64,000 nt of DNA from a bacterium (GTDB taxonomy: Bacteria > Patescibacteriota > Minisyncoccia > UBA6257 > UBA9933). This document shows positions 13,082 through 33,036 of this stretch, piece after piece. Both the position numbers and the translations under genes were made by a program. The DNA lies in NCBI GenBank assembly GCA_021796335.1, contig JAJYHZ010000002.1, positions 192,998 through 256,997 on the forward strand, written 5' to 3'. Position 1 is the stretch's first letter. The number at the start of each line of letters is the position of its first letter. The notes beneath the pieces are model-generated. The model saw only the letters and a list, made by a program, of their open reading frames with translations, did no database searches and had not been told where the DNA came from.

Positions 13082-13432
13082 TTAAATATGATTTTTTTTC
13101 TTTAATGTTTTGTCCGGGAAATTAAAGTAAAAATCCCAGTGCCCGACTTCGTGCGCCAAGATCATTGTTATCTGCTCACGAAATTTTTCATTGAGATTGT
13201 TTAAATCCGGATTATTTATGTTGCAAATCCAAGCAATCGCCCAGATTTTCCAATTGTCGATTGTTATTATGTTTGAAAATAAGCTGAATGTTCCTAGGAC
13301 GGCGATTGGAGAAATCGATTTAAAAATTAATTCGGGCAAGGGATAGCTTCCCCTTTCCGCCATTAATTTTTTCAAGAGCTGTAAATTTAAATTGAATTTT
13401 GGCATTGGTGGAATTTCTCTGAATTTAAACAA
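13082..13432 (-). CDS. small HExxH-motif protein (possible ImmA/IrrE- or DUF45-like metallopeptidase remnant)
   Basis: ILAHEVGHWDF motif near C-terminus; 116 aa. Confidence 0.35.
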   Translation of the reverse strand: MFKFREIPPMPKFNLNLQLLKKLMAERGSYPLPELIFKSISPIAVLGTFSLFSNIITIDNWKIWAIAWICNINNPDLNNLNEKFREQITMILAHEVGHWDFYFNFPDKTLKKKNHI

Positions 13433-13761: not shown

Positions 13762-13857
13762 AAATTTACACGAATGAGTAACGAATCTGCACGAATCACG
13801 AATATTGTTTATCGGTGATTCGTGAAAATTTGTTTTTAATTTGTGAGAATTCGTAAA
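13762..13857. promoter_or_regulatory. array of CACGAAT/CACAAAT heptamers in direct and inverted orientation immediately upstream of nusA
   Basis: acacgaat, aacgaat, cacgaat-cacgaat, then gtgattcgtg, atttgtt, atttgtg, attcgta; same word family flanks GxxExxY gene at 50609-50652/51024-51070. Confidence 0.5.
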
Positions 13858-13860
13858 TAG

Positions 13861-15057
13861 ATGTTGGATCTCAAATCACTTAACTGGGCGGTCAAACAAA
13901 TCGCGGAAGAAAAAGGATTGGCTGAAGACCAGGTGGCGGAAGCGGTGGAATCCGCGATTGCCGCAGCTTATAAAAAGGAATATTGCAAGAAGGGGGAAGT
14001 TGTAAAAGCGAAACTTGATTTAAAATCCGGTGATTTGAAATTCTGGAAAATCAAAACCGTTGTTGACGAATCAATGGTCAGAATTTTGACTGATGAAGAA
14101 GCGGCAGCTGAAGAGCCGCCCAAAGAAGGCGAAGAAAGACTGCCGCGGTATAATCCGGACAGGCATATTTTAATCGACGAGGCGAAAGCAACAGATCCGA
14201 ATGCAAATTTAGGAGATGAACTGCAATTTGAATTGGAAGTTCATCAGGATTTTGGAAGAATTGCTGCACAAACTGCTAAGCAGGTCATTTTGCAAAAAAT
14301 CCGTGAAGCGGAAAGAGACTCCATTAAAAAAGAATTCATTAATAAAGAAGGCGAGATAATCAGCGGCGTCATTCAGCGAATCGAAAGAGGAAATGTTTTT
14401 GTCGATCTCGGCCGCGCCATGGGAATCATGTTTTTCAACGAAGCGATTCCGGGAGAAAGATACAGAATTAGTGAAAGATTGAGATTTTATGTGGTGGCGG
14501 TTCAGGAAGAAGAAGGAAAGAGACCGGGAATTATTTTATCGCGTTCGCATCCGAACTTTGTTTCCAAGCTTTTTGAGCTGGAAGTTCCGGAAATTGCGGA
14601 AGGACTGGTGGAGATTAAAGCAATTGCGAGGGAAGCGGGAAACAGGACGAAAATTGCCGTGTTTTCTAAAGAAGAGGGAGTTGATCCTATAGGCGCTTGC
14701 GTCGGACAAAGGGGAACTCGCGTCATGGCGGTTACCAATGAGCTGGGAAACGAGAAAATCGATATTATCGAATGGCATGAAGATCCTGCTAAGTTTATTG
14801 CTGCGAGTTTGTCGCCGGCAAAAGTCATCAATGTCGATATTCTGCCGCGCCGGGAAGCGAAAGTTTTGGTCAACGACGATCAATTAAGTCTGGCAATCGG
14901 AAAAGACGGGCAAAACGCCAGATTGGCGGCAAAACTCACCGGATGGAAAATAGATATCCGCTCGCAGCAAAATCCGGATGCGGTTCAGGAAGGAGGAGTT
15001 TACGGGGAAGAAGCAGCCGGAAAGGATGATTCTGCTAAAGCCGAATCTGGAGAATAA
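13861..15057 (+). CDS. nusA: transcription termination/antitermination factor NusA
   Basis: N-terminal domain, S1 domain GEIISGVIQRIERGNVFVDLG, two KH domains with GxxG (GKDGQNARLAAKLTGWKIDI). Confidence 0.9.
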   Translation: MLDLKSLNWAVKQIAEEKGLAEDQVAEAVESAIAAAYKKEYCKKGEVVKAKLDLKSGDLKFWKIKTVVDESMVRILTDEEAAAEEPPKEGEERLPRYNPDRHILIDEAKATDPNANLGDELQFELEVHQDFGRIAAQTAKQVILQKIREAERDSIKKEFINKEGEIISGVIQRIERGNVFVDLGRAMGIMFFNEAIPGERYRISERLRFYVVAVQEEEGKRPGIILSRSHPNFVSKLFELEVPEIAEGLVEIKAIAREAGNRTKIAVFSKEEGVDPIGACVGQRGTRVMAVTNELGNEKIDIIEWHEDPAKFIAASLSPAKVINVDILPRREAKVLVNDDQLSLAIGKDGQNARLAAKLTGWKIDIRSQQNPDAVQEGGVYGEEAAGKDDSAKAESGE

Positions 15058-15169
15058 ATAATTTTTGAGATAAAATAAATAATGTAAAAAGTTTTTAACG
15101 TTCGCAAAGTTTTTAAGGCAATTAATCCAGTGCTTTATAAACTTTTGACATTATAACTTTATAAACTAA

Positions 15170-15721
15170 ATGGGTATTTATAATGTTAAAATCGGGGACG
15201 AGGCACCCGAGGTAATAAATGCGGTAATTGAAATACCGAAAAACAGCCAGAATAAATACGAATACGACGAAAAAGGAAATTATTTCAAACTGGATCGCGT
15301 GCTTTATTCCCCTATGCATTATCCGGCCGATTACGGATTTATTCCGGAGACCAGATCGGAAGACGGAGATCACTTAGACGTCATTATTCTAGGAAGTGAT
15401 CCGCTTTTTACGGGCTGCGTGGTGGCGATAAGGCCTATTGGCATTTTAAAGATGATTGATGACGGCGATCCGGATTTTAAAATTTTGGCGGTTCAGGAAA
15501 AAAATCCGCGATTTAAAAATATTAAAGACATCAAAGATATCGAATCCACTCATGAACATTCATTAAAAGAAATCGCGCATTTTTTCCAGGTCTATAAGGA
15601 CTTACAAGGGAAAAAGGTGGAAATTCAGGGCTGGGAAGGAAAAATGGCGGCTATTGAAGAAATAAAAAAAGCGCAGGAAACATTTGCGAATGAAACAAAA
15701 GAAGTGGAGTTGGTTAAATAA
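15170..15721 (+). CDS. ppa: inorganic pyrophosphatase (family I)
   Basis: YPADYGFIPETRSEDGDHLDVIIL signature. Confidence 0.9.
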   Translation: MGIYNVKIGDEAPEVINAVIEIPKNSQNKYEYDEKGNYFKLDRVLYSPMHYPADYGFIPETRSEDGDHLDVIILGSDPLFTGCVVAIRPIGILKMIDDGDPDFKILAVQEKNPRFKNIKDIKDIESTHEHSLKEIAHFFQVYKDLQGKKVEIQGWEGKMAAIEEIKKAQETFANETKEVELVK

Positions 15722-15749
15722 AAAAACAATCACTTGAATCAACTATTAA

Positions 15750-16373
15750 ATGGAAAATAAAAAAAATAACGAACAAATTTATAATCAATATCTGATTCCG
15801 ACCATTATTGAGAAGACTCAATACGGCGAAAGAGCTTACGATATTTATTCGAGGCTTTTAAAAGAAAGAATCATTTTTTTGGGGGGGGTGATTAATGACC
15901 AGGTTGCGAATATCATTATCGCCCAGCTTTTGTTTTTGGAAAACGAAGATTCGAAAAAAGACATTACTCTTTATATTAATTCTCCGGGAGGGTCGGTTTA
16001 CGCGGGCATGGCGATTTACGACACCATGCAATATATTAAACCGGATGTTTCGACAATTTGTGTCGGAATGGCGGCTTCAATGGGGGCATTTTTGCTTTTA
16101 TCCGGGGCTAAGGGAAAGAGAATTGCCTTGCCGAATTCCCAGATTTTGCTTCACCAGGTGATGGGAGGTGCGGAAGGCCAGGCGACGGACGTGGCGATTA
16201 CAGCCAAACAAATCGTAAAAGTGAAAGATAAGCTGAATCAGATTATTTCCAAGCATACCGGACAGTCGTTTGCAAAAGTGGAAAAAGATACGGATAGGGA
16301 TTTTTATATGACTCCGCAGGAAGCTAAAGAATACGGAGTAATTGATGAAATTATTAAGTCAAAAGGAAGATGA
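15750..16373 (+). CDS. clpP: ATP-dependent Clp protease proteolytic subunit
   Basis: [42 protein letters not shown] with catalytic Ser/His context. Confidence 0.9.
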
Positions 16374-16410
16374 TTAAAATAGCGACGAGCGTATTAGAGA
16401 CAAGGTAAAA

Positions 16411-16437
16411 ACAATCCTAAAAGCGGATTGTTTTTTT
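16411..16437 (+). terminator. rho-independent terminator after clpP
   Basis: caatcc-taaaagc-ggattg + ttttttt. Confidence 0.7.
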
Positions 16438-16462
16438 ATGGGCGTTAAAATATTATTTTTAT

Positions 16463-17032
16463 ATGCAGCCAGCCGAATTTGAAATCTTATTTGAAAAAGT
16501 TGCCAGTCTAATAACTTTGGATATGTTTGCAAAAGAAACGGATTTGGAAGGCAATTTCCCCAAAAAAGATCCGAAAACCTCCGCATGGGATGCGGTAGAT
16601 ATATTTTGCGATAATGAATACATAGACATCGGAGACGGCAGATACGTCTCGAATAAAGTTTTTTCCAAAGTTAGGGTGCCGTTTTTTATTATTTTGGCGG
16701 AATTTGAAAGCAGATTATTTCGAATTCACGAGTGGAATGGAGAGAATATCAATGAGTTAAATGATAAAAACCTGAATGACTATATAAAAGAATTAACAAA
16801 TAATCCCGAACTGATGAAACTGCAAAAAGAATACAGGAATAGGAGCGAATTTATGAATGATATGAAAGCGATCAGTTCATTTAGAAACATAATTATGCAC
16901 GTTAATAATAATTTGGAAAAAAACGTGAGCATAGAAACAGTTGTAAAGAGGAAAAAGCAGATTTTCAGGGTTTTGGCCGCATTGCAGGAGATTTTGGACA
17001 AAATGGCGAGTTCCGCATTAAAGAATCGATAA
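16463..17032 (+). CDS. hypothetical protein with HEPN-type RNxxxH motif (possible standalone HEPN RNase / Abi-like)
   Basis: SSFRNIIMHVNNN matches R-[NHQ]-x3-H HEPN catalytic motif in predicted helical C-terminal half; no partner gene evident. Confidence 0.4.
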   Translation: MQPAEFEILFEKVASLITLDMFAKETDLEGNFPKKDPKTSAWDAVDIFCDNEYIDIGDGRYVSNKVFSKVRVPFFIILAEFESRLFRIHEWNGENINELNDKNLNDYIKELTNNPELMKLQKEYRNRSEFMNDMKAISSFRNIIMHVNNNLEKNVSIETVVKRKKQIFRVLAALQEILDKMASSALKNR

Positions 17033-17119
17033 GATAAAACGTCTGGGCGGTTTTATCATGGGTTGTTTTTTATTCTTGATAAATTTATACTGATTTAAAT
17101 CTAATTAATTTTAAAAATT

Positions 17120-18160
17120 ATGAAAGTGTTATTTTCAGAGATTGAAAATTGGGAAGCGGATTATATAAAGCGACAAATCGGCAATCAGGCGGAATTATTT
17201 TTCAACGAGCAGAAAATAATCAAAAGCAATCTTCCGGAACAAAAAGACTTTGATGCAATTTCAGTTTTTGTCGGTTCGAAAATAGACAAGGAAGTAATAG
17301 ATAACTTTCCAAATTTAAAATTAATTACAACCAGGTCAACGGGTTTTGATCATATTGATTTGGATTATGCCAAACAAAAAGGGATCCAGGTGGGATATGT
17401 GCCGGGATACGGAGACAATACCGTGGCGGAATACGCTTTCGGATTACTTTTGGCATTATCAAGAAAAATTTATGACGGAGTCGATCGAATCAAGGAAACG
17501 GAAAATTTCAATTTTGACGGTTTGCGAGGGTTTGATTTAAAAGGGAAAACAATGGGAGTTTTGGGAACCGGGAGAATCGGCCAGCATACCATCAAAATCG
17601 CCAACGGATTCGGCATGAATGTGATCGCTTATGACGCTTTCCAGAAAGAAGAATTGGCGCAAAGTTTGAATTTCAAATACGTTTCTTTGGATGAATTATT
17701 GGGGCAGGCGGATGTAATCAGCATTCATTTGCCATATATTGCTCCTTCGACAATTTCAGGGCAAGCGTCAACGCATCATTTGATAAATAAAGACAATATT
17801 TCAAAAATTAAAAAAGGGGCGATTTTGATCAATACGGCTCGCGGGGCGATTGTGGAAACCGATGCATTGGTGCAGGCTCTGCAACAAGGAATTCTGGGCG
17901 GAGCCGGATTGGACGTTCTGGAAGAAGAAGGGGTTTTGCAGGTTGAGAGGGGAATGGCGTTTAGGGACAGTTTGCGAAGCGCGGATATGAAAACTGTTTT
18001 GGAAGATCATGTTCTGATGCAAATGCCCAATGTTCTGATTACGCCGCATAACGCTTTTAACACAGTTGAAGCTTTAAAAAGAATATTGGATACTGACATA
18101 AACAATATTAAATTTTATTTAAGCAAATCGCAGGTTTCTTTCCCTGTTCCGGCAAAATAA
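17120..18160 (+). CDS. D-isomer-specific 2-hydroxyacid dehydrogenase (D-lactate dehydrogenase-like)
   Basis: NAD-binding GVLGTGRIGQ, catalytic R/E/H arrangement, 346 aa. Confidence 0.8.
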   Translation: MKVLFSEIENWEADYIKRQIGNQAELFFNEQKIIKSNLPEQKDFDAISVFVGSKIDKEVIDNFPNLKLITTRSTGFDHIDLDYAKQKGIQVGYVPGYGDNTVAEYAFGLLLALSRKIYDGVDRIKETENFNFDGLRGFDLKGKTMGVLGTGRIGQHTIKIANGFGMNVIAYDAFQKEELAQSLNFKYVSLDELLGQADVISIHLPYIAPSTISGQASTHHLINKDNISKIKKGAILINTARGAIVETDALVQALQQGILGGAGLDVLEEEGVLQVERGMAFRDSLRSADMKTVLEDHVLMQMPNVLITPHNAFNTVEALKRILDTDINNIKFYLSKSQVSFPVPAK

Positions 18161-18307
18161 ATGAGAAATAAAAAAGGATTTATACAGGTTCTGATAATTT
18201 TGGCAATAATCGGCGCGATAATTTTTGCGATTGTTTGGTTTGTGCAAAATCAACAATGGAGCAAAATCGAAAATACTAATAATAATAATGTAACTAATAC
18301 CCAATAA
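18161..18307 (+). CDS. putative 48-aa single-TM peptide (not in ORF track, <60 aa)
   Basis: ATG directly abuts ldh stop; MRNKKGFIQVLIILAIIGAIIFAIVWFVQNQQWSKIENTNNNNVTNTQ; ends 4 nt before gap start. Confidence 0.3.
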   Translation: MRNKKGFIQVLIILAIIGAIIFAIVWFVQNQQWSKIENTNNNNVTNTQ

Positions 18308-18311
18308 TAAT

Positions 18312-19382
18312 ATGACAAAAATAGCGATAAACGGTTTTGGCAGGATTGGCCGGTTGTTTTTAAGACAGGCGATCGAATTATCTTTTCGACAAGCTCAGGG
18401 CGAACCGGAATTGGAAATTGTGGCAATCAATGATTTGGGGAATTTAGAAAATCTTGCCTACTTGTTGAAATATGATTCTACTTACAGACAGTTTCCTGGA
18501 GAGGTTTCATTTGAGGGCGATCCTTTGACAGGCTCAGGAAAAATCATAATAAGCGGAAAGGGAATAAAATTTATTTCCGAAAAAGACCCGACCAAATTAC
18601 CGTGGAAAGATTTGGGAGTGGATATTGTTGTTGAATCAACAGGAGTTTTTGAGACCTTTGAAAAGTCAAAAGCGCATATTAATGCGGGCGCAAAAAGAGT
18701 GGTTTTAACTGCGCCGGCAAAAGATGCTGACGGAACTTTCGGAAGAACAATTCTAGTCGGGATGAATGAAGGTGAAATAAAATCCTTTGAAATAACTTCG
18801 AATGCGTCATGCACAACCAACGCCACTTCGCCGGTAATCGCGATTATGGCGGAAACAATCGGTATTGAAAAAGCGATTTTAAGCACTGTGCATGCAATGA
18901 CAAACACTCAAACCGTTGTTGATACGGCGGTGAGGGGAGGTGATTTCAGGCGGGGAAGAGCGGCAAGCCATAATATAATTCCGTCAACAACCGGAGCGGC
19001 AATTGCCGTGACGAAAGTTTACAAAGATTTGGAAGGAAAATTTGACGGAATCGCCATGAGAGTTCCGGTAATAACCGGTTCAATCGCGGATATTACTTTT
19101 GTGGCCAAAAGAAAAACTTCAACTGAGGAAATTAAAGAAATTTTCAAAAAAGCGGCGGAATCCGAACAATGGAAGGGAATTTTAAAAGTAACGGAGGATC
19201 AGATCGTTTCCAGCGACATAATAGGCCAGCCGTACGGAGCGATTGTTGATTTGAAATTTACAAAAGTAATAGATGGCGATTTGGTAAAAATTCTGTCGTG
19301 GTATGATAATGAATGGGGGTATACGGCAATGCTGGTAAAACATGTTTTAAAAGCAGCCGAATTAATAACTAACGGCCAATAG
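18312..19382 (+). CDS. gap: glyceraldehyde-3-phosphate dehydrogenase, type I
   Basis: INGFGRIGR NAD motif, active-site SNASCTTN, C-terminal WYDNEWGY. Confidence 0.9.
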   Translation: MTKIAINGFGRIGRLFLRQAIELSFRQAQGEPELEIVAINDLGNLENLAYLLKYDSTYRQFPGEVSFEGDPLTGSGKIIISGKGIKFISEKDPTKLPWKDLGVDIVVESTGVFETFEKSKAHINAGAKRVVLTAPAKDADGTFGRTILVGMNEGEIKSFEITSNASCTTNATSPVIAIMAETIGIEKAILSTVHAMTNTQTVVDTAVRGGDFRRGRAASHNIIPSTTGAAIAVTKVYKDLEGKFDGIAMRVPVITGSIADITFVAKRKTSTEEIKEIFKKAAESEQWKGILKVTEDQIVSSDIIGQPYGAIVDLKFTKVIDGDLVKILSWYDNEWGYTAMLVKHVLKAAELITNGQ

Positions 19383-19398
19383 CAAATAACTATTTACT

Positions 19399-23803: not shown

Positions 23804-26800
23804 ATGAGTAATATAATCAGAAAGATCGCAGTTGTAGGGCTTTCAGCAACCACTGTGTTGTCTTTTTCTGGAGTTATTTTCTCAGCTTCAGCCGCAACTG
23901 CCGCTGATATCCAAGCCCAAATTCAGGCTTTGGAAACTCAGCTCGCAGCTTTGCAGTCGCAGCTCGGAACCACTTCGGGAACAACTGCTTCAGCAACCAC
24001 TTTTACTCGCAACCTCACTGTGGGTTCAAGAGGAACTGAAGTTTCAGCCTTACAGCAAATTTTGATTAACGCGGGCTTTTTGAAGATCGCTACTCCGACC
24101 ACCTACTTTGGTCCTTTGACAAAAGCAGCTTTGGCTAAATATCAGGCAGCTAATGGCATTAAGCCGGCTGTCGGATATTTCGGACCGATCACAAGAGCTT
24201 ACGTTAATTCATTACAAACAACAACCGGAACTGGAACCGGCACTGGTACTGGAACAGGTACTGGCACTGGAACCGGAACTGGAACCACAACGCCGGCAGC
24301 CGCTGGTTTGACAGTCTCATTGGCTTCAGACAATCCGGCAGCCGCAAGCATTCCTCGAAATTACACTGGACAGGGATCAGAGTTGGTTCCTGTGATGAAA
24401 GTTAATTTCGCAGCAGGAAGCAATGCCGTTACCGTAACCGATTTGAAAGTCAACCGATCAGGCCTTTCAGCCGACAGTGACATTCAAAATGTTTACCTTA
24501 TGGATGGAAGCAATGTAATTGCAACCAACTTAAGCATCAGCAGCGGTGTTATTGATTTCAATAACGGCGCAGGTTTGTTTACGGTTAACGCAAATCAAAC
24601 AAAAGAACTGATTGTTGCAATCAGCTTGGTTGATAGTGTAGCTGCAGGATCAACCTATCAGTTTTCTATTGCCAGCGCTTCATCAGTTACAGCTGGCGGA
24701 GCTGCAATCAACGGAACATTTCCGGTTAGCGGTAATACTATGACTTCTGCTACAGTTACAACTCTTGGCGGAATTCAGATTACCGACAGCTCAACTGGAA
24801 CTTCATCCCCAGGATTATCAGTAAATGCCGGACAAACTCAGTTCCAGGTTGGACAGTTCTCAATTCAGGCGCAGCAGCAATCAATGCAAGTTAAATCAAT
24901 CAAACTTACTTCGGTTGGAAGCGTAGCCTCAACTGATGTACAGAATTTCAAGTTATACAATGGCGGAACTTTGTTGGCCACTGTTCCTTCAGTTGGCTCA
25001 AACAATACCGTTTTGTTTGACTTGTCAGCTAGTCCGTTGCAATTAACCTCGGGACAATCAGCTCAACTTTATGTTTATGCTGATGTTTTGGGCGGTGTAA
25101 ACCGATACTTCCAATTGTCAATCCAGCATGATTACGATGTAGTTGCGCAGGACTTGATGTTTAATATCGGCGTAACACCTTCATTGAACACCGGTTCATT
25201 CCCGATGTATTTGTCTTATGTCAACGTTCAAGCGGGAGCTTTGACTATTACCAAGGATGCAAACTCTCCGGTTAACTATCTGTTGCCGGGAGGAACCAAC
25301 CAAACCATTGCCAAGATTGATTTCCAGGCAACTGGCGAAGCGGTAAGAATCACAAGTTTCGCTGTTAACTTGGCAACTACTACTGGAACAACCGGAACAG
25401 TCTCTAACCTTAAGGTTATTGATGACCAGGGCGTTCAAATCGGTACGACTCAAACATCGCCGACTTTGGGCTCTGATATTTCTTACAGCAATTTGAATTA
25501 CATCATTCCAGCAAATACAACCAGAGTTCTCTCGGTTGTGGTTGATGTATCTTCAGGTTATTCCGGAACATTGCAAGGTACTATAAAGACTATTGTTGGC
25601 CAGGGATACACTTCTCTTGCCTCAATAAGCAATGCTTCCGGTCAGAGCGGCAATTCTTTGACTGCCAACAGCACTCTTTTGAGCGTTGCTCAAAACGGTT
25701 CATTGGGAACAGTCAGCGTTGTTGCCGGACAATCCAATGCCCACATCGCTTCATTTAACTTGACAGCGGGCGCGGCAAGCGGAGTCAGCGTTTCCAACAT
25801 TTCTTTGACCACCGATTCAAAGGCTGGATCAGTACTGAAGAATTTGGTTGTTAAAGTTGGAGGAACTCAGATCGGAACAACTCAGGGCACTGTCAGCGCA
25901 AGCACTGCTTACACTTTCACTGCCTCAACTCCGATTACAATTGCGGCAGGAGGACAGCAGACTGTTGACGTATATGCCGATGTCCAGAGCGGAGCTTCTA
26001 ACGGTACTACAACCATTACCAGCCTTTCCGGCGTATCGGCTATCGCTTCCGCAACAAATCAGGCAATCACCGGAGTTCCGAGTTCTGCAGTAGCCGGTCA
26101 AACCGACACTGTAGCAACTGCCGGAACAATGACTTATGCTGGTTACAACATGCCGGCTGCACAGCAGGTTGGCATGGGAACAACCGGTATCAAGATTGCT
26201 TCATACTTGTTGACAGGTTCTAACAGCGAAGCTATCAACGTTAATAACGTTACGGTAAATTCAACATCGTCAATTGCCGGTTTGCTTTCAAATTACACTT
26301 TGAAAGTCGGCGGAACCACTTATGGCACTCCGTTAACACCGGGATCAGGAACAACAACCTCATTGACATTTGTTGGAACCAATATTCCTGTTGCTCAGAG
26401 CGGAACTGTTGAATTGGATCTTTATGCAGACGCAAACTCATATTCTAATTTGAGCGGCGTTTACACATCGACCAATACGCCTGCAACGGTTACTGTAGGT
26501 ATTCCTTCGATCACTTATCAGGGAACTGCTTCACAGAATACCGGAACTGCAACAAGCACCGATCAAAGCCAGACTTTGACAGTGGTTAGGTCATCCTTGG
26601 CAGCTTCAACTGCTTCGGGTGTTACCTATGGCGGTTCATACAGCAACTACTTGGTTGGCGCTTTCACATTCACTGCTGGAAGCGGCAACAATGTCAGTAT
26701 TTCCGCAATCAATCTTGGAGAATTGATTAACAATGCAAGCTCAAGTAAAACAACTACTACTTTGATCTTGTGGGATAACACTTTGGGACAGGCCGTTGAC

Positions 26801-27079
26801 TCCACCACTACAACTGTAGATGGAACTGGAGCTACAACTACGCTTGCTGCCGCAATTAATATCCCGGCTGGTACTTCTAAAACAATCGCTGTTTACTCAG
26901 ATGTAAGCGGATTTACTACGAAGCCAACCAATCAAACTTCTTCAATCACAGATCAGGTTAACCTGTTTGGCTGGACTTGGAGCGATGGTACAGTTACCAA
27001 TCTTACTCCGGATCCGCGATACAACTTGCCTACAGCGGCAATCACAGGATCAGCTAGCCCGGTCACGATCGTTCAGTAA
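23804..27079 (+). CDS. giant Thr/Ser-rich secreted surface (S-layer-like) protein with peptidoglycan-binding domain
   Basis: signal peptide, coiled-coil ADIQAQIQALETQLAALQSQL, PG_binding_1-like LTVGSRGTEVSALQQIL...AANGI, (TG)11 linker, >800 aa beta-rich T/S/G/A repeats; strong terminator downstream. Confidence 0.7.
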   Translation: MSNIIRKIAVVGLSATTVLSFSGVIFSASAATAADIQAQIQALETQLAALQSQLGTTSGTTASATTFTRNLTVGSRGTEVSALQQILINAGFLKIATPTTYFGPLTKAALAKYQAANGIKPAVGYFGPITRAYVNSLQTTTGTGTGTGTGTGTGTGTGTGTTTPAAAGLTVSLASDNPAAASIPRNYTGQGSELVPVMKVNFAAGSNAVTVTDLKVNRSGLSADSDIQNVYLMDGSNVIATNLSISSGVIDFNNGAGLFTVNANQTKELIVAISLVDSVAAGSTYQFSIASASSVTAGGAAINGTFPVSGNTMTSATVTTLGGIQITDSSTGTSSPGLSVNAGQTQFQVGQFSIQAQQQSMQVKSIKLTSVGSVASTDVQNFKLYNGGTLLATVPSVGSNNTVLFDLSASPLQLTSGQSAQLYVYADVLGGVNRYFQLSIQHDYDVVAQDLMFNIGVTPSLNTGSFPMYLSYVNVQAGALTITKDANSPVNYLLPGGTNQTIAKIDFQATGEAVRITSFAVNLATTTGTTGTVSNLKVIDDQGVQIGTTQTSPTLGSDISYSNLNYIIPANTTRVLSVVVDVSSGYSGTLQGTIKTIVGQGYTSLASISNASGQSGNSLTANSTLLSVAQNGSLGTVSVVAGQSNAHIASFNLTAGAASGVSVSNISLTTDSKAGSVLKNLVVKVGGTQIGTTQGTVSASTAYTFTASTPITIAAGGQQTVDVYADVQSGASNGTTTITSLSGVSAIASATNQAITGVPSSAVAGQTDTVATAGTMTYAGYNMPAAQQVGMGTTGIKIASYLLTGSNSEAINVNNVTVNSTSSIAGLLSNYTLKVGGTTYGTPLTPGSGTTTSLTFVGTNIPVAQSGTVELDLYADANSYSNLSGVYTSTNTPATVTVGIPSITYQGTASQNTGTATSTDQSQTLTVVRSSLAASTASGVTYGGSYSNYLVGAFTFTAGSGNNVSISAINLGELINNASSSKTTTTLILWDNTLGQAVDSTTTTVDGTGATTTLAAAINIPAGTSKTIAVYSDVSGFTTKPTNQTSSITDQVNLFGWTWSDGTVTNLTPDPRYNLPTAAITGSASPVTIVQ
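24234..24286 (+). repeat. in-frame hexanucleotide (ACNGGN)n tract encoding (Thr-Gly)n
   Basis: accgga actgga accggc actggt actgga acaggt actggc actgga accgga actgga acc. Confidence 0.8.
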
Positions 27080-27300: not shown

Positions 27301-27852
27301 ATGATAATACATCATATTTTGGAAATAATCAGGGCAGCCGGAATTATTTCGGCTGATGTCGCTTTTACCGATTATCACACTTCTTATAGGAGGATGCGGC
27401 GGATGATGAGATATGGAGTTGATTCTTACTTGGAATTAAACGATTTTAAAAAACATAAGGAGTCCGAGAGAAACAGGTTTAACAGCCTCCTTTGGTATTT
27501 GAAGAAAAAAGGATTGATTGAACGGAAAAAAGGTAATAAATGGAAGATAACGGAAGGCGGAATAAAATGGCTAAAGACGCATTCTCATAAATTGATTCCG
27601 TTTGAAAGCAATGAATTAAAAAAGGGAGAGAAAATAATAATTATTTTCGATATCCCCGAGAAAAGCAAAAAGAAACGAGATTGGCTTAGGAAAAGTTTGG
27701 TTAACATCGATTTTAAAATGCTTCAAAAGAGCGTGTGGATGGGAGATTCGAAATTGCCGGAGGAATTCATTTTGGAAATGAAAAATTTAAACATAATTTC
27801 CTATATCCATATATTTTCGATTAAAGAGAAGGGATCGATTGATTTTAAATAG
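27301..27852 (+). CDS. wHTH + Cas2/VapD-like domain protein (PaaX-like architecture), paralog 1
   Basis: C-terminal IIIFDIPEKSKKKRDWLRKSLVNIDFKMLQKSVWMG matches Cas2 pattern (hhhYDh..KRR.kh.k.L..yG.R.Q.SVF); N-terminal LWYLKKKGLIERKKGNKWKITEGG wing-like; paralog at 34536. Confidence 0.5.
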   Translation: MIIHHILEIIRAAGIISADVAFTDYHTSYRRMRRMMRYGVDSYLELNDFKKHKESERNRFNSLLWYLKKKGLIERKKGNKWKITEGGIKWLKTHSHKLIPFESNELKKGEKIIIIFDIPEKSKKKRDWLRKSLVNIDFKMLQKSVWMGDSKLPEEFILEMKNLNIISYIHIFSIKEKGSIDFK

Positions 27853-28318: not shown

Positions 28319-28858
28319 ATGACTGAATTTAATCAAAACAACAAGAAGTTTAAAAGCAAATATTGGAAATTTGTCGCCGGATTTTTTATTTTAATATTTT
28401 TGGCGATTGCCGGGTATGCTGTTTGGAACAAATATTTCGGTTCTGAAGCTAGGGCTATAAGAGCGAAACAAAAACAAATTCAATTTACTTTGGACGCGCA
28501 GAAAAAATACGAAGAGGCGATGAAAAACGACACGTACGGCGGCAAAACTCCGGAGGAAACTTTACAGATGTTTACGGGCGCTTTAAAGAAGGGTGATATT
28601 GATTTAGCGAGCAAGTATTTTGTTTTAAGAGAAGACGGAAGTGTTGATCCAAAGTGGGTGGAGGGATTGGGAAAAGAAAAAACGGATGGGAGATTGCAAC
28701 AAATTATAGGCATTATTCAAAGGTCAAAATCTGATTCAGCTCAATTAACTGATTACTCAGCTTGGTTTACCGTAGATGATAATTCAGGGATGGCTGAATA
28801 TACAATAATTTTAAATTTAGATAAGCAATCAGGAATATGGAAAATAGAAAGCTTGTAG
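28319..28858 (+). CDS. membrane-anchored hypothetical protein (N-terminal TM, extracytoplasmic domain)
   Basis: single TM WKFVAGFFILIFLAIAGYAVW; 22-bp overlap with downstream giant gene suggests operon. Confidence 0.45.
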   Translation: MTEFNQNNKKFKSKYWKFVAGFFILIFLAIAGYAVWNKYFGSEARAIRAKQKQIQFTLDAQKKYEEAMKNDTYGGKTPEETLQMFTGALKKGDIDLASKYFVLREDGSVDPKWVEGLGKEKTDGRLQQIIGIIQRSKSDSAQLTDYSAWFTVDDNSGMAEYTIILNLDKQSGIWKIESL

Positions 28859-31800
28859 ATTTTTTATTTTTAATTTTAATATTGGTAATTTTTATCGGAT
28901 CGGGTTTTATAAATCAAACGTTTGCGTATGACACGGAAACGCACGCTTATTTGACGAGCGAGATTTTTGATTTTTACAACAAAAATTTTCCGCAAAACAA
29001 ATTGGCTGATGAGTTTAAGAATTATTTGATTGACGGCAGCAGAAATGAGGATAATACGCCGAGATGGATGAATCATTTCTACGACCCCGTGAATAACCGA
29101 GGGCTTACTTGCGATAGCGCGATTGATTTAATTTGCTTAGGTAATTGGGAAAGTTCGAAAATTTGGGCAAATGACAACAATAATCAAAATAGTTTGACCT
29201 ACAAAGTGCCGGCAACAATCGCTTCGACTTTGACTGCGATTGAGCAAAAAAATTTGAGTTTAATTTCAGGCGAAACTGATTTTACCTGGAATGAGGCAAT
29301 TAAAGATTGGATTACTGGCAATAAGGGGAAAGCAATATTTATTCTCGGGCATATTCTGCATCTAATTGAAGATATTTCCGTGCCTGATCATACCAGGAAT
29401 GATTCGCATCCCGGAGACAGCCCTTATGAAAATTATAGCCAGCAATTCACTTTGGCTAATCCGGACCAAAACCTGAATAACAGGATGGTTGGCAAAAATC
29501 CGATAATTTTAAGCGATTTGGGAAATTATTTTGACGAATTGGCAAAATATTCCAATAAATATTTTTACAGCAAAGACACGATTGGAATTCAAAGCGGATA
29601 TGAATTTCCGCAACCGGATTTTACAAAATTAGAGTCAGGTGGGAAGTATTACTATGTTTTAAATAGAGATTCAGATGGCCAAAATTATTACCTCATTACA
29701 AAGAAGTCATTGGGAAATATAATTATTAGTTACCCGAATGACTATGCGTTTGATGACAAAATTTCGTCTTCCTACTGGGCTCTTCTTTCCGTGAAATCGG
29801 TTCAATACGGCGCCGGAGCGATAAATCTTTTCTTTCAGGACGTTGAAAAGGCGAAAAACGATTCGAACTTTATCAAGGCGGATACGGCGGAAAACAAATC
29901 AACTTTTTCCGCAATTTATGACACGGCAAAAACATTCGCAAACAATCTTGGCAATTCTTTGGCTTCGATTTGGACTGCGGCAAAAGGCGTTTTCAGCACT
30001 GATCAAAATTTCAATCAAGTAGCCGAAATTGATTTGCAAAACAATGCGAGCGATTCGAATTTGACCACAACCCAAAATCAAAATAAATCCCGGACAAACG
30101 CCAAAACAGTTTCTTTAAAAACGGATAGCTCGAAAACCAAAACAGATGCCGAGGTGGCAAATTTAAAAGATCAAATTAATAATCTGAAAAATAATATTGC
30201 GGCTTTGGAAAAAGAAAATCAGGCGCTTGTAAAATCGCAATCGCAGACAACCGGGGAGATTTCTAAAAATACCGCGATCGGAACGGCCGGGCAAACGAAC
30301 AATTCATCGCCGGCGCAAGTTTCTTGCGGCTTCAATACAGCTCAATCGCCGAGCCGCAATAAATTAATAATAAACGAAGTGGCCTGGATGGGTTCAAGTG
30401 CAAGCGCGAGCGACGAGTGGATTGAGTTAAAAAATATTTCCGGCGGAGATTTAAATATTTCCGGATGGCAATTAATAAGTCAGAATAATCAGATAGAAAT
30501 TAATTTAGAAGGTTTAAAAAATCAAAAAATCGGCGCGGGAAGATTTATTTTGCTGGAGCGGACCGATGATAATTCCGCCATAGGCGTTCCGGCGGATCTG
30601 ATCTACAGCGGCAGTTTGGCCAACACAAACACGGGATTGCGATTATTCGATAGCGATTGCAATTTAACTGATGAAGTTTTTGCTAATCCGAATTGGCCGG
30701 CTGGCGATAATTCTTCAAAGAAAACAATGGAAAGGGATACAAACGGCTTAAACTGGCACACTTCCGGCAATGTCGGCGGAACTCCGAAACAAGAAAATTC
30801 TTCGGCATCTTTCGCTCCAAGCGGCGGATACACAACATTTTCTCCGGCGAATACCGGCCAAAATCAAAATAATGCCGTTCAGTCGGCAGCGGCTCCGCAA
30901 TATTATCCCGTAAAAATAACGGAAATCATGTACAATCCCGAAGGAAGCGATACGGACAGGGAGTGGATAGAAATTTATAATGGCGGGATGTCGGCTGTCG
31001 ATTTAACCGGTTGGAAAATCAATGAAGGCAATGCGAATCATGGCTTGAAATTGTCCGACATCAAAACTTTAAATACGGGAGAGTACGCCGTTATAGCAAG
31101 CAATAAGGCGGGATTTCTTTCAGACTTTCCCGATTATTCGGGAAATATTTTTGAAAGCGCGATTTCTTTAAATAATGGCGGAGAATCGATTGCTTTGAAA
31201 AACGGAGATTTGAAAATTGACGAAATAAATTATTCGCCGGAAACGGGAGCTGACGGAAATGGAAAAAGCCTGCAGTTAATAGGTGGCTTTTGGAAAGAAG
31301 GAACGCCGTCGCCGGGAAAAGAAAATGCGCCGGACGCAGCGGACAAAAATCCGACAGCAGTTTTTGTTTTTAGTCCCGATAATCCGACAGCTGGGGGCGA
31401 GATAAGTTTCGATGCCTCTTCCTCGACTGATTCGGATGGAAATATTGTTGAATATGATTGGGATTTCGGCGACGGCATTTTTGCCACTACAAGCAGCAAT
31501 GCGATTACTCACACATATGCGAATCCCGGAGATTTCATGATTAGTCTGACAGTTTTTGATGATCAAAGCGTTTCGTCATCGGCAACTACTTCGATTTCAA
31601 TAAGACCAGCCGAGGATAATAACATAAATAATTCCGCAAGTCCCGCAAATATTTTTATAAGCGAGATTGTTTATGACGGCGAAGGCGATGACAGCGGAAA
31701 AGAATTTGCGGAATTGTATAATGCGTCCGATCAGACCGATTTAACAGGCTGGGGCTTAAAATATAAAAAAGGAGACGCGACTTCAGCCGAAACCTTGGCG

Positions 31801-33036
31801 GTTTTTGGAAACAATAGCAATGACATCACTGTGATTCCGAAAAACGGATTTCTACTGATCGGCTTAAATAATTATGACGCAGCTAATTATAACCAGGCTG
31901 CGGCCGATATTTTAAGATCAACGAGTTTGCCAAATGGAACAGCTACGGAAACTGTCGACGTAATTTTATACGATGAGAACGGGAATAAAATTAATAGCGT
32001 AAATTATAATGCGGATTCCGCTGCTAGCGGGGCAAGTTTGGAGCGGAGGGCTTTGGTGAACGGCGAATGTGTTATTGCACAAAACGAAAACGAATATTCG
32101 GGAAACGGATGCGATTCGAATAACGTTCTCGACAAACGGGAAATTCCAAATCCGCAGAATTCAAAAAGCCAAAGCGAGCCGAGAACTCCGCCGCCTGCGC
32201 CGGAAAATTTCACCATTAATTTTGAAGAAAATCCCATGCCGGAAGGATATAAACTTGATTGGAAACCATTGGATTTAAATTTAAGCTGGGGGGCGCCGCA
32301 AGGGTACGAAAATTTAAATTATGAAATAAAGGATATAAGCGATTCGGCAAATCATTTTCCCGACATTAAAGCAAAGGCGACTTCGGCAAAGATTTACATC
32401 AATGAGGTCGGCCGGGATTATAAATTTGAAATTTCGGCGATTGACGATATTGGTTTAAAATCCAGTTCAACGCAGTTTTCCATAAATGTTCCCAGTTTTT
32501 TTAAATCCGTTTCGTTTTATTCCAATAGCACATCTTCTTATTCACTTGATTTGAGTTGGGATAAATATCCGTTCATTCCCGATCCAAAAGCCGGAAGAAA
32601 AGTTGTAATTTTTTATTATAACCAGGATGCGCCGGCAATAGGCGATATCAAATGGATTTTCGGGAATGATTATAAAATGTGGGGATTGATCGGACCTGCA
32701 GGCGCCTTGTCTTTGGAATATCCGAATTGCTCGACTCTTTATCCGACTAAAGGAAAATCTTTAATACTTCCCGACAGTCCCAAGTACTGCAACGTTGATA
32801 CGGATCAGGGGAAATACGCAATTAATTACAATTTATTAAATAATCAAAAAATTTCTTTGACCGTATCGAGCAATCAATTTAATTCCGCTCCGGAATCCGG
32901 AAAGGATTATGTGACAATGGCGTTTTATTCTTTTATCCCCGGATATGAGCCGAATGATTACGGAACAAGAATAGTGGGAGTTGATAAAACTAAATATTAT
33001 TTTGAAGGAATTAAAGAAAATTTAAATCCCCTTTGA
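28837..33036 (+). CDS. giant secreted multidomain protein: Zn-dependent phospholipase C/S1-P1 nuclease-like domain + coiled coil + three lamin-tail domains (LTD) + PKD domain + C-terminal beta domains
   Basis: HFYDP and HLIEDISVPDHTRND (Zn-PLC-like); coiled coil ~aa 440-470; LTD motifs INEVAWMGS...DEWIELKNISGGDLNISGWQL, ITEIMYNPEGSDTDREWIEIYNGGMSAVDLTGWKI, ISEIVYDGEGDDSGKEFAELYNASDQTDLTGWGL; PKD VFVFSPDNPTAGGEISFDASSSTDSDGNIVEYDWDFGDG. Confidence 0.75.
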   Translation: MENRKLVDFLFLILILVIFIGSGFINQTFAYDTETHAYLTSEIFDFYNKNFPQNKLADEFKNYLIDGSRNEDNTPRWMNHFYDPVNNRGLTCDSAIDLICLGNWESSKIWANDNNNQNSLTYKVPATIASTLTAIEQKNLSLISGETDFTWNEAIKDWITGNKGKAIFILGHILHLIEDISVPDHTRNDSHPGDSPYENYSQQFTLANPDQNLNNRMVGKNPIILSDLGNYFDELAKYSNKYFYSKDTIGIQSGYEFPQPDFTKLESGGKYYYVLNRDSDGQNYYLITKKSLGNIIISYPNDYAFDDKISSSYWALLSVKSVQYGAGAINLFFQDVEKAKNDSNFIKADTAENKSTFSAIYDTAKTFANNLGNSLASIWTAAKGVFSTDQNFNQVAEIDLQNNASDSNLTTTQNQNKSRTNAKTVSLKTDSSKTKTDAEVANLKDQINNLKNNIAALEKENQALVKSQSQTTGEISKNTAIGTAGQTNNSSPAQVSCGFNTAQSPSRNKLIINEVAWMGSSASASDEWIELKNISGGDLNISGWQLISQNNQIEINLEGLKNQKIGAGRFILLERTDDNSAIGVPADLIYSGSLANTNTGLRLFDSDCNLTDEVFANPNWPAGDNSSKKTMERDTNGLNWHTSGNVGGTPKQENSSASFAPSGGYTTFSPANTGQNQNNAVQSAAAPQYYPVKITEIMYNPEGSDTDREWIEIYNGGMSAVDLTGWKINEGNANHGLKLSDIKTLNTGEYAVIASNKAGFLSDFPDYSGNIFESAISLNNGGESIALKNGDLKIDEINYSPETGADGNGKSLQLIGGFWKEGTPSPGKENAPDAADKNPTAVFVFSPDNPTAGGEISFDASSSTDSDGNIVEYDWDFGDGIFATTSSNAITHTYANPGDFMISLTVFDDQSVSSSATTSISIRPAEDNNINNSASPANIFISEIVYDGEGDDSGKEFAELYNASDQTDLTGWGLKYKKGDATSAETLAVFGNNSNDITVIPKNGFLLIGLNNYDAANYNQAAADILRSTSLPNGTATETVDVILYDENGNKINSVNYNADSAASGASLERRALVNGECVIAQNENEYSGNGCDSNNVLDKREIPNPQNSKSQSEPRTPPPAPENFTINFEENPMPEGYKLDWKPLDLNLSWGAPQGYENLNYEIKDISDSANHFPDIKAKATSAKIYINEVGRDYKFEISAIDDIGLKSSSTQFSINVPSFFKSVSFYSNSTSSYSLDLSWDKYPFIPDPKAGRKVVIFYYNQDAPAIGDIKWIFGNDYKMWGLIGPAGALSLEYPNCSTLYPTKGKSLILPDSPKYCNVDTDQGKYAINYNLLNNQKISLTVSSNQFNSAPESGKDYVTMAFYSFIPGYEPNDYGTRIVGVDKTKYYFEGIKENLNPL

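Follow-up and report, generated by a model that had tools for sequence, protein, structure and literature searches.

A 64,000-nucleotide stretch of bacterial DNA (contig JAJYHZ010000002.1, positions 192,998 to 256,997; hereafter the window) contains, between clpP and a gene for a 2-hydroxyacid dehydrogenase, a gene for a 189-amino-acid protein whose sequence and predicted structure point to a CBS-like domain followed by a HEPN domain. The protein is very probably homologous to DS-11, a one-protein anti-phage system of E. coli that likewise combines CBS and HEPN domains (DeWeirdt et al., Science 2026, PMC13092281). The reading favored here, with a probability of roughly 60%, is that it is a standalone CBS-like and HEPN RNase, a distant and shortened DS-11 homologue that is probably gated by a nucleotide and would act in defense or in stress arrest. 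The gene and the relevant parts of its product are as follows.

16463..17032, + strand: complete gene for the CBS-like and HEPN protein, 189 amino acids, ATG to TAA, from the open reading frame (ORF) listing
17030-17032, + strand: stop codon TAA of this gene
16463..16660, + strand: N-terminal alpha/beta domain (residues 1-66), with one CBS-like motif and the remnant of a first
16661..17023, + strand: predicted HEPN domain (residues 67-187), an all-helical bundle
16700..16714, + strand: E80-F-E82-S-R84, acidic/basic element of the Ex3[KR] type in the first HEPN helix
16874-16900, + strand: SSFRNIIMH, residues 138-146
16883..16900, + strand: R141-N142-I-I-M-H146, predicted catalytic Rx4H motif

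A rare protein family with HEPN hallmarks

The gene is real and conserved, and the family to which its product belongs is likewise real, although very rare. A search of 5.8 billion proteins recovered only 19 relatives, which share 50-76% identity and a common start, range from 124 to 236 amino acids (mostly about 185), and neither bear a name nor contain a Pfam domain. When 1.84 billion cluster representatives were searched exhaustively with a profile, 22 were recovered at E ≤ 1e-3. The description of the protein as an orphan in the initial annotation is thus apt in that no library model recognizes it past threshold, but not in the strict sense, given that a small homologous family exists.

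Active HEPN domains are distinguished by an Rx4-6H motif with a polar residue (N, D or H) after the arginine and by an acidic element of the Ex3[KR] type (Anantharaman et al., 2013, PMC3710099). Both hallmarks are present here, the former as R141-N142-x3-H146 and the latter as E80-x3-R84, accompanied by E82, within the helix spanning residues 67-91. The 19-sequence alignment shows no variation at R141, N142, H146 and N148 or in the block E80-F-E82-x-R84-L-F-R87-I. Nine members of greater divergence were then added, along with two fusion proteins after trimming, for an extended alignment of 29 sequences, and in it R141, H146, E82, F74 and K164 are retained in all 29 sequences, N142 in 28 (D in the remaining one), E80 in 27 and R84 in 25. 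The motif by itself is weak: shuffled versions of the protein contain Rx4-6H in 27% of cases, R[NDH]x3-5H in 5% and RNx3H in 1%, and the protein is alone among the 50 long ORFs of the window in having an RNx3H-type motif. Rather, RNxxxH is meaningful because it is conserved across the family. The protein has only two histidines, each of which lies within an Rx4H. The other of these, R84-x4-H89, was considered as a second catalytic motif and rejected, as H89 is found in only 20 of the 29 sequences (L, Q, N or I elsewhere) and falls opposite non-catalytic positions of DS-11.

Curated libraries repeatedly place the family near HEPN models, always below threshold. For the window protein, these matches are to HepT-like and MauJ in Pfam and to DS11_antiphage (E 0.0096) and HepT_toxin (E 0.019) in NCBIfam. 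Among the 19 core members, HepT_toxin is matched by eight (best E 5.7e-4) and HEPN_MAE_28990, HepT-like and HEPN_Apea by three each (best E 4.4e-4, 0.0062 and 0.16, respectively), again sub-threshold, and the DS11_antiphage model (NF053863) by just one. None of the 19 matches Pfam CBS (PF00571) at E ≤ 1. The most divergent relative, a 243-amino-acid protein of Thermococcus thioreducens (P0039), serves as a bridging member: it matches DS11_antiphage at 1.6e-6 (27.5 bits), Pfam CBS at E 0.0028 (18.4 bits, where the gathering score is 24) and HEPN_RiboL-PSP at E 0.0014. PHROGs yielded only weak matches, to families of unknown function. Since Pfam, NCBIfam, PADLOC and PHROGs all fail to recognize the family, it is missed by defense annotation pipelines that are based on PADLOC models.

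Predicted structure

The AlphaFold2 model of the 189-amino-acid protein, computed from the family alignment, has a mean predicted local distance difference test (pLDDT) score of 91.1 and a predicted template modeling (pTM) score of 0.86. Residues 1-66 form an alpha/beta unit and residues 67-187 a helical bundle, so that the expectation of a mostly helical protein in the initial annotation is correct for the latter segment but not for the former. The bundle can be superposed on solved HEPN domains, with HepT structures among the best superpositions, and together with the conserved residues this leaves little doubt that it is a HEPN domain with a catalytic-type site. The N-terminal unit appears to comprise a CBS-like motif at approximately residues 33-66, preceded by what resembles the remnant of a first CBS motif at residues 1-25, and is likely to be a CBS-like regulatory domain. 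A Foldseek search of viral structures (BFVD) gave no significant match for the protein. The N-terminal domain, which would make the protein a sensor plus effector instead of a bare HEPN domain, was not part of the initial annotation, and neither were the link to DS-11 and the distribution centered on DPANN archaea that are described below.

Relationship to DS-11 and other CBS-HEPN proteins

The DS-11 protein (WP_000257686.1, 365 amino acids) is represented in NCBIfam by NF053863, "CBS domain-containing anti-phage protein". Defense by DS-11 is lost in the HEPN mutants R330A and H335A and in the CBS mutant Y157A, and in the model that its authors put forward the nuclease is gated by an adenine derivative yet to be identified (DeWeirdt et al., Science 2026, PMC13092281). 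The DS-11 sequence was taken from Table S8 of that study, its family was collected, and hhalign was run with profiles on both sides, with the following results.

Family (29 sequences) against DS-11 family (117 sequences): 95.7%, E 3.9e-9, residues 1-180 opposite DS-11 residues 152-365, 174 columns
HEPN part alone against DS-11 family: 92.7%, E 4.2e-7
N-terminal part alone against DS-11 family: 23.7%, E 8.5e-4
Family against the family of P0039: 96.8%, E 2.7e-10
Family of P0039 against DS-11 family: 77.9%, E 1.8e-5
Controls, family against 20 column-shuffled and one reversed DS-11 profile: at most 1.6%, E 0.032 or higher

The relationship becomes clear only with two profiles, as the comparison of the 19-sequence alignment with the single DS-11 sequence is uninformative (0.6%, E 0.094). 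In the register of the main alignment, R141 is paired with R330 and H146 with H335, such that RNIIMH stands opposite RNDVMH and, over a longer segment, PFFIILAEFESRLFRI opposite PFLLLSEIENHIRKL. F6, which is phenylalanine in 24 of the 29 sequences and tryptophan in one, falls opposite Y157, the aromatic residue of the DS-11 CBS domain that contacts adenine (PMC13092281), although this pairing resides in the low-confidence first columns of the alignment. Judged from these comparisons, the window protein appears to be homologous to the C-terminal 60% of DS-11, from the tail of CBS motif 1 through CBS motif 2 to the HEPN domain. The HEPN relationship proposed in the initial annotation is therefore upheld in profile searches, by the hhalign result as well as by the recurrent sub-threshold HEPN-clan matches and the conserved hallmarks.

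In both cases a single protein passes from a CBS or CBS-like motif straight into a HEPN domain, the Rx4H spacing is equal with an asparagine after the arginine, and the helix-1 element is shared (SEIENH in DS-11, AEFESR in the window protein). In contrast, the window protein is half the size (189 versus about 365 amino acids) and lacks the counterpart of DS-11 residues 1-151, that is, the N-terminal domain, the linker and most of CBS motif 1. It therefore does not have the full N-terminal region with paired CBS motifs (a Bateman module) and HEPN domain of DS-11. The two families also differ in abundance and range. DS-11 relatives number at least 3643 clusters, the named ones among the best 120 all being from Proteobacteria, whereas the present family comprises about 20 clusters from DPANN archaea and a few bacteria.

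Similar comparisons can be drawn with other known systems. CBS(+HD)-HEPN fusions occur in the Swt1-like/Abi2 HEPN clade and are exemplified by alr3009 and a Pelobacter protein (gi 118580987) (Anantharaman et al., 2013, PMC3710099). The window protein appears to be akin and homologous to such fusions of the Swt1-like clade, from which it differs in having no HD domain and a much shorter CBS region; no direct profile match of the family to PF18731 was obtained. In the HepT/MntA type VII toxin-antitoxin system (PF01934, NF047751; PDB 5yep, 7ae2, 7bxo), the toxin is accompanied by an MNT antitoxin, which is not adjacent to the window gene, and the window protein has an additional N-terminal CBS-like domain. 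The CARF-HEPN effectors of type III CRISPR systems (Csm6/Csx1) employ a CARF sensor in place of the CBS-like one, and the window protein exhibits neither a CRISPR association nor any sign of a cyclic-oligoadenylate ligand.

DS-11 has been validated only recently, and its 189-amino-acid relative retains the final CBS motif along with the catalytic core of the HEPN domain. A naturally minimized protein of this kind could show how much of the sensor can be dispensed with, and structural and biochemical studies would be easier with it.

Distribution, genomic contexts and decay

Among 185,579 GTDB species genomes, there are five family loci, all in DPANN archaea (one Nanoarchaeota, one Iainarchaeum, two Woesearchaeota and one Pacearchaeota). 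Other family contigs carry archaeal markers such as RNase P p30/Rpp14 and a TFIIS-type ribbon, and outside the clade of the window protein, the homologues on identifiable contigs are all from DPANN archaea. The window itself is bacterial in content, with NusA, ClpP, a MacB/FtsX-HlyD pump and polysaccharide-synthesis genes. In a neighbor-joining tree, computed without support values, the window protein and its nearest relatives form one clade nested within the DPANN sequences, and this clade also holds a second bacterial group, in which the loci have a syntenic arrangement that includes TruB, RsmE and DinB genes. This topology is compatible with a single transfer between domains. Recent horizontal acquisition of the window gene was considered and set aside, as base composition lends it no support. 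With this family, the range of CBS-HEPN proteins comes to include DPANN archaea and a bacterial lineage that has been poorly sampled, and the sharing of a gene between domains is of evolutionary interest. To our knowledge, very few defense systems have been described in DPANN archaea or in such poorly sampled bacteria.

The neighbors of the family gene vary among lineages. Apart from local synteny, no gene cluster is found repeatedly, which argues that there is no conserved operon partner. The identical 189-amino-acid protein is found on seven metagenomic contigs with its neighbors unchanged. The initial annotation had regarded the gene as standalone and without a partner, and this view holds in the window and across the variable contexts elsewhere. 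In three related archaeal loci (L024 6617-8452, L004 6888-8747 and L028 8023-9079), a gene located downstream of the family member codes for a 611-amino-acid protein in which an NTP_transf_2/Polbeta domain of the nucleotidyltransferase type is recognized at 30.1 bits (cut-off 21). This protein could be an MNT-like partner particular to the lineage, or its position could simply reflect synteny. As a general MNT partner for the family it was rejected, being confined to these three loci and having no homologue in the 64-kb window.

Decay of the gene is evident in the second bacterial group, where it is intact at two loci (L012 and L036) and carries two frameshifts at others (L013-L015 and L040). 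In L013 (1208-1762), for example, frame 2 encodes residues 1-57 and frame 3 residues 51-168, after which the sequence returns to frame 2. The 124-amino-acid middle fragment of the broken gene (P0019) recurs on 16 contigs, which indicates a real and apparently recent pseudogene and not an assembly error.

The family has also entered into several fusions. At a single locus (L032, 6001-6969), the gene is fused in frame to a NUDIX domain (PF00293, E 8.7e-19), yielding a 322-amino-acid CBS-like-HEPN-Nudix protein. This might be an off-switch that degrades the ligand, or just the consequence of a lost stop codon. A 403-amino-acid protein (P0022, residues 1-95 and 212-392) contains an additional N-terminal region resembling a classical HEPN domain (PF05168, E 0.0068, sub-threshold), which precedes the family domain. 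A C-terminal extension of about 190 amino acids without a Pfam match is fused to the family domain in a Nanoarchaeota metagenome-assembled genome (L017/L022, 6001-7137) and in P0020, and is encoded just downstream in another frame on Pacearchaeota contigs (L021 5513-5914; L041; L037). The single-sequence structure model of P0020 (379 amino acids) has a pLDDT of 38 and is unusable for this extension. Rarity, patchiness, decay and domain shuffling are together typical of accessory conflict genes and not of core housekeeping enzymes.

Proposed function and alternatives

Homology to DS-11 suggests a role for the window protein in abortive infection or the stress response. As is usual for HEPN RNases, it would dimerize through the HEPN domain, so that two Rx4H motifs would combine in a single active site that is independent of metal. 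The CBS-like domain could then set the nuclease off or on by binding a ligand of the adenine-nucleotide type. With its sensor reduced to roughly one and a half CBS motifs, the protein may need the dimer to build a complete Bateman-like module, or else its ligand site may differ from that of DS-11. Infection, or nucleotide or energy stress, would be the trigger, leading to cleavage of cellular and/or viral RNA and to growth arrest, an abortive-infection or stress response that would need no partner gene.

Conceivably, this scheme could be taken further, to a minimal ligand-gated immune or stress RNase of very small cells, although the combination of a dimer-completed pocket, an alarmone trigger and spread between DPANN archaea and small bacteria is unlikely as a whole. 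Under this proposal, it would take the HEPN dimer for the single CBS motif and the remnant to make up a whole Bateman-like nucleotide pocket, and an alarmone-type adenine dinucleotide (e.g., Ap4A) would directly assemble or release the composite RNase site. One member, with its Nudix fusion, gives a hint that an off-switch for an adenine-dinucleotide ligand may be part of the protein itself. Spread of the family would have taken place between DPANN archaea and bacteria of similarly small size that share the same 0.1-µm-filtered communities, and, if all of this were true, the family would represent a defense module specific to episymbiotic microbes.

Several observations weigh against the broader reading of the protein as a nucleotide-gated defense or stress RNase. 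No profile of the HEPN clan (Pfam clan CL0291) is matched above its curated threshold: the window protein reaches 12.9 bits with HepT-like, whose gathering score is 23.5, and 14.8 bits with HepT_toxin, whose cut-off is 60. Its match to DS11_antiphage covers profile positions 231-288 only, at 15 bits against 260, and, because of this score and the absence of part of the defining architecture, it is classed here as a CBS-HEPN variant and not as a member of NF053863. Foldseek against the PDB gave no significant match, the best well-superposed structures being HepT toxins at E > 2, and both single-sequence and profile searches of PDB sequences returned matches at chance level only. PADLOC reports nothing for the protein, and a scan of viral contigs found no family members. 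Finally, the gene is surrounded by housekeeping genes and not by a defense island, and its GC content at third codon positions (GC3) is 0.41, the same as that of its neighbors. A role in defense or conflict, as opposed to housekeeping, is about as likely as not.

One alternative is a physiological function, in which a CBS-gated HEPN RNase would tune RNA stability to the adenylate or energy state of the cell. Control of RNA stability in response to a ligand has been suggested for CBS-HEPN proteins (PMC3710099), and such a regulator would suit a gene that lies between clpP and genes of central metabolism with matching GC3, and a family whose synteny is preserved within one bacterial clade (L012, L036, L013-15) and for which no link to viruses or mobile elements was found. 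It would be expected, however, to be far more widespread than a family with 22 representatives in 1.84 billion and five loci in 185,579 genomes, and the pseudogene in one lineage, the passage between domains of life and the variable fusions fit it poorly. With the sole experimentally characterized relative, DS-11, being a defense protein, a housekeeping regulator seems somewhat unlikely.

The resemblance to HepT raises a further alternative, that of a toxin of the HEPN/MNT (type VII-like) kind whose antitoxin is not adjacent in this genome. HepT_toxin is the commonest sub-threshold match, HepT structures superpose well, and the 611-amino-acid nucleotidyltransferase of three archaeal loci could be viewed as the missing half of such a pair. 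Yet those three loci are closely related and stand among about 20 distinct contexts, so that shared synteny may suffice, and the HepT_toxin score falls far below its cut-off. As the initial annotation had stated, no MNT gene is adjacent; neither an MNT nor a small antitoxin-like ORF, nor any recognized defense gene, lies within 8 kb on either side. Given also that DS-11, the closer relative, acts alone, a toxin-antitoxin pair is improbable. Still less credible is a non-catalytic HEPN-like bundle that binds a ligand or protein, comparable to the C-terminal domain of kanamycin nucleotidyltransferase, MtlR or the sacsin-type HEPN. HEPN lineages without catalysis usually lose the Rx4-6H motif (PMC3710099), whereas in the present family the arginine, the following asparagine, the histidine and the glutamate of helix 1 show little or no variation across 29 divergent sequences, and the conserved residues align with those essential for DS-11 function.

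Gene neighborhood and other features of the window

The surroundings of the gene are listed below.

15750..16373: clpP, upstream neighbor (PF00574)
16407..16437, + strand: terminator-like hairpin and T-run after clpP, 11-bp stem and 7-nucleotide loop
17033..17074, + strand: weak hairpin (17033-17057) with the T-run further off, a doubtful terminator after the 189-amino-acid gene
17120..18160: D-isomer-specific 2-hydroxyacid dehydrogenase, downstream neighbor (PF00389/PF02826)
18312-19382: GAPDH

Further out lie NusA, inorganic pyrophosphatase and GAPDH. At 16407-16435, the hairpin that follows clpP has a folding free energy of -11 kcal/mol (z -2.85 against shuffles) and is convincing as a terminator that sets the gene apart from the transcription unit upstream. 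Beyond the gene itself, the hairpin is weak (-7.4 kcal/mol, z -0.98), with 33 of 200 shuffles folding as well or better. Of the terminator-bounded unit proposed in the initial annotation, the upstream boundary thus stands, but the downstream one amounts to a weak hairpin with a displaced T-run. A scan for consensus terminators reported neither hairpin. No Shine-Dalgarno-like purine run is found in the 25 nucleotides before seven consecutive starts, from nusA to a membrane protein gene (13836-19398).

NusA, ClpP and the 2-hydroxyacid dehydrogenase (13861-18160), together with GAPDH, are singletons at 90% identity among about 15 billion proteins, which indicates that the source lineage is very poorly sampled. 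There is no rRNA in the 64-kb window.

Other ORFs of the window are of separate interest. On the minus strand, a 116-amino-acid ORF (13082-13432) contains AHEVGH, of the HExxH type, without a Pfam match, and could be small and metallopeptidase-like or spurious. A 183-amino-acid protein (27301-27852, + strand) joins a winged-helix/Mrr_N-like region to a PaaX/Cas2-like domain (PaaX_M 1.4e-13, CRISPR_Cas2 5.1e-6). Two large proteins encoded on the plus strand are probably surface proteins: one of 1091 amino acids (23804-27079), in which a peptidoglycan-binding domain is the only one recognized, and one of 1399 amino acids (28837-33036), which has three lamin-tail domains and a PKD domain.
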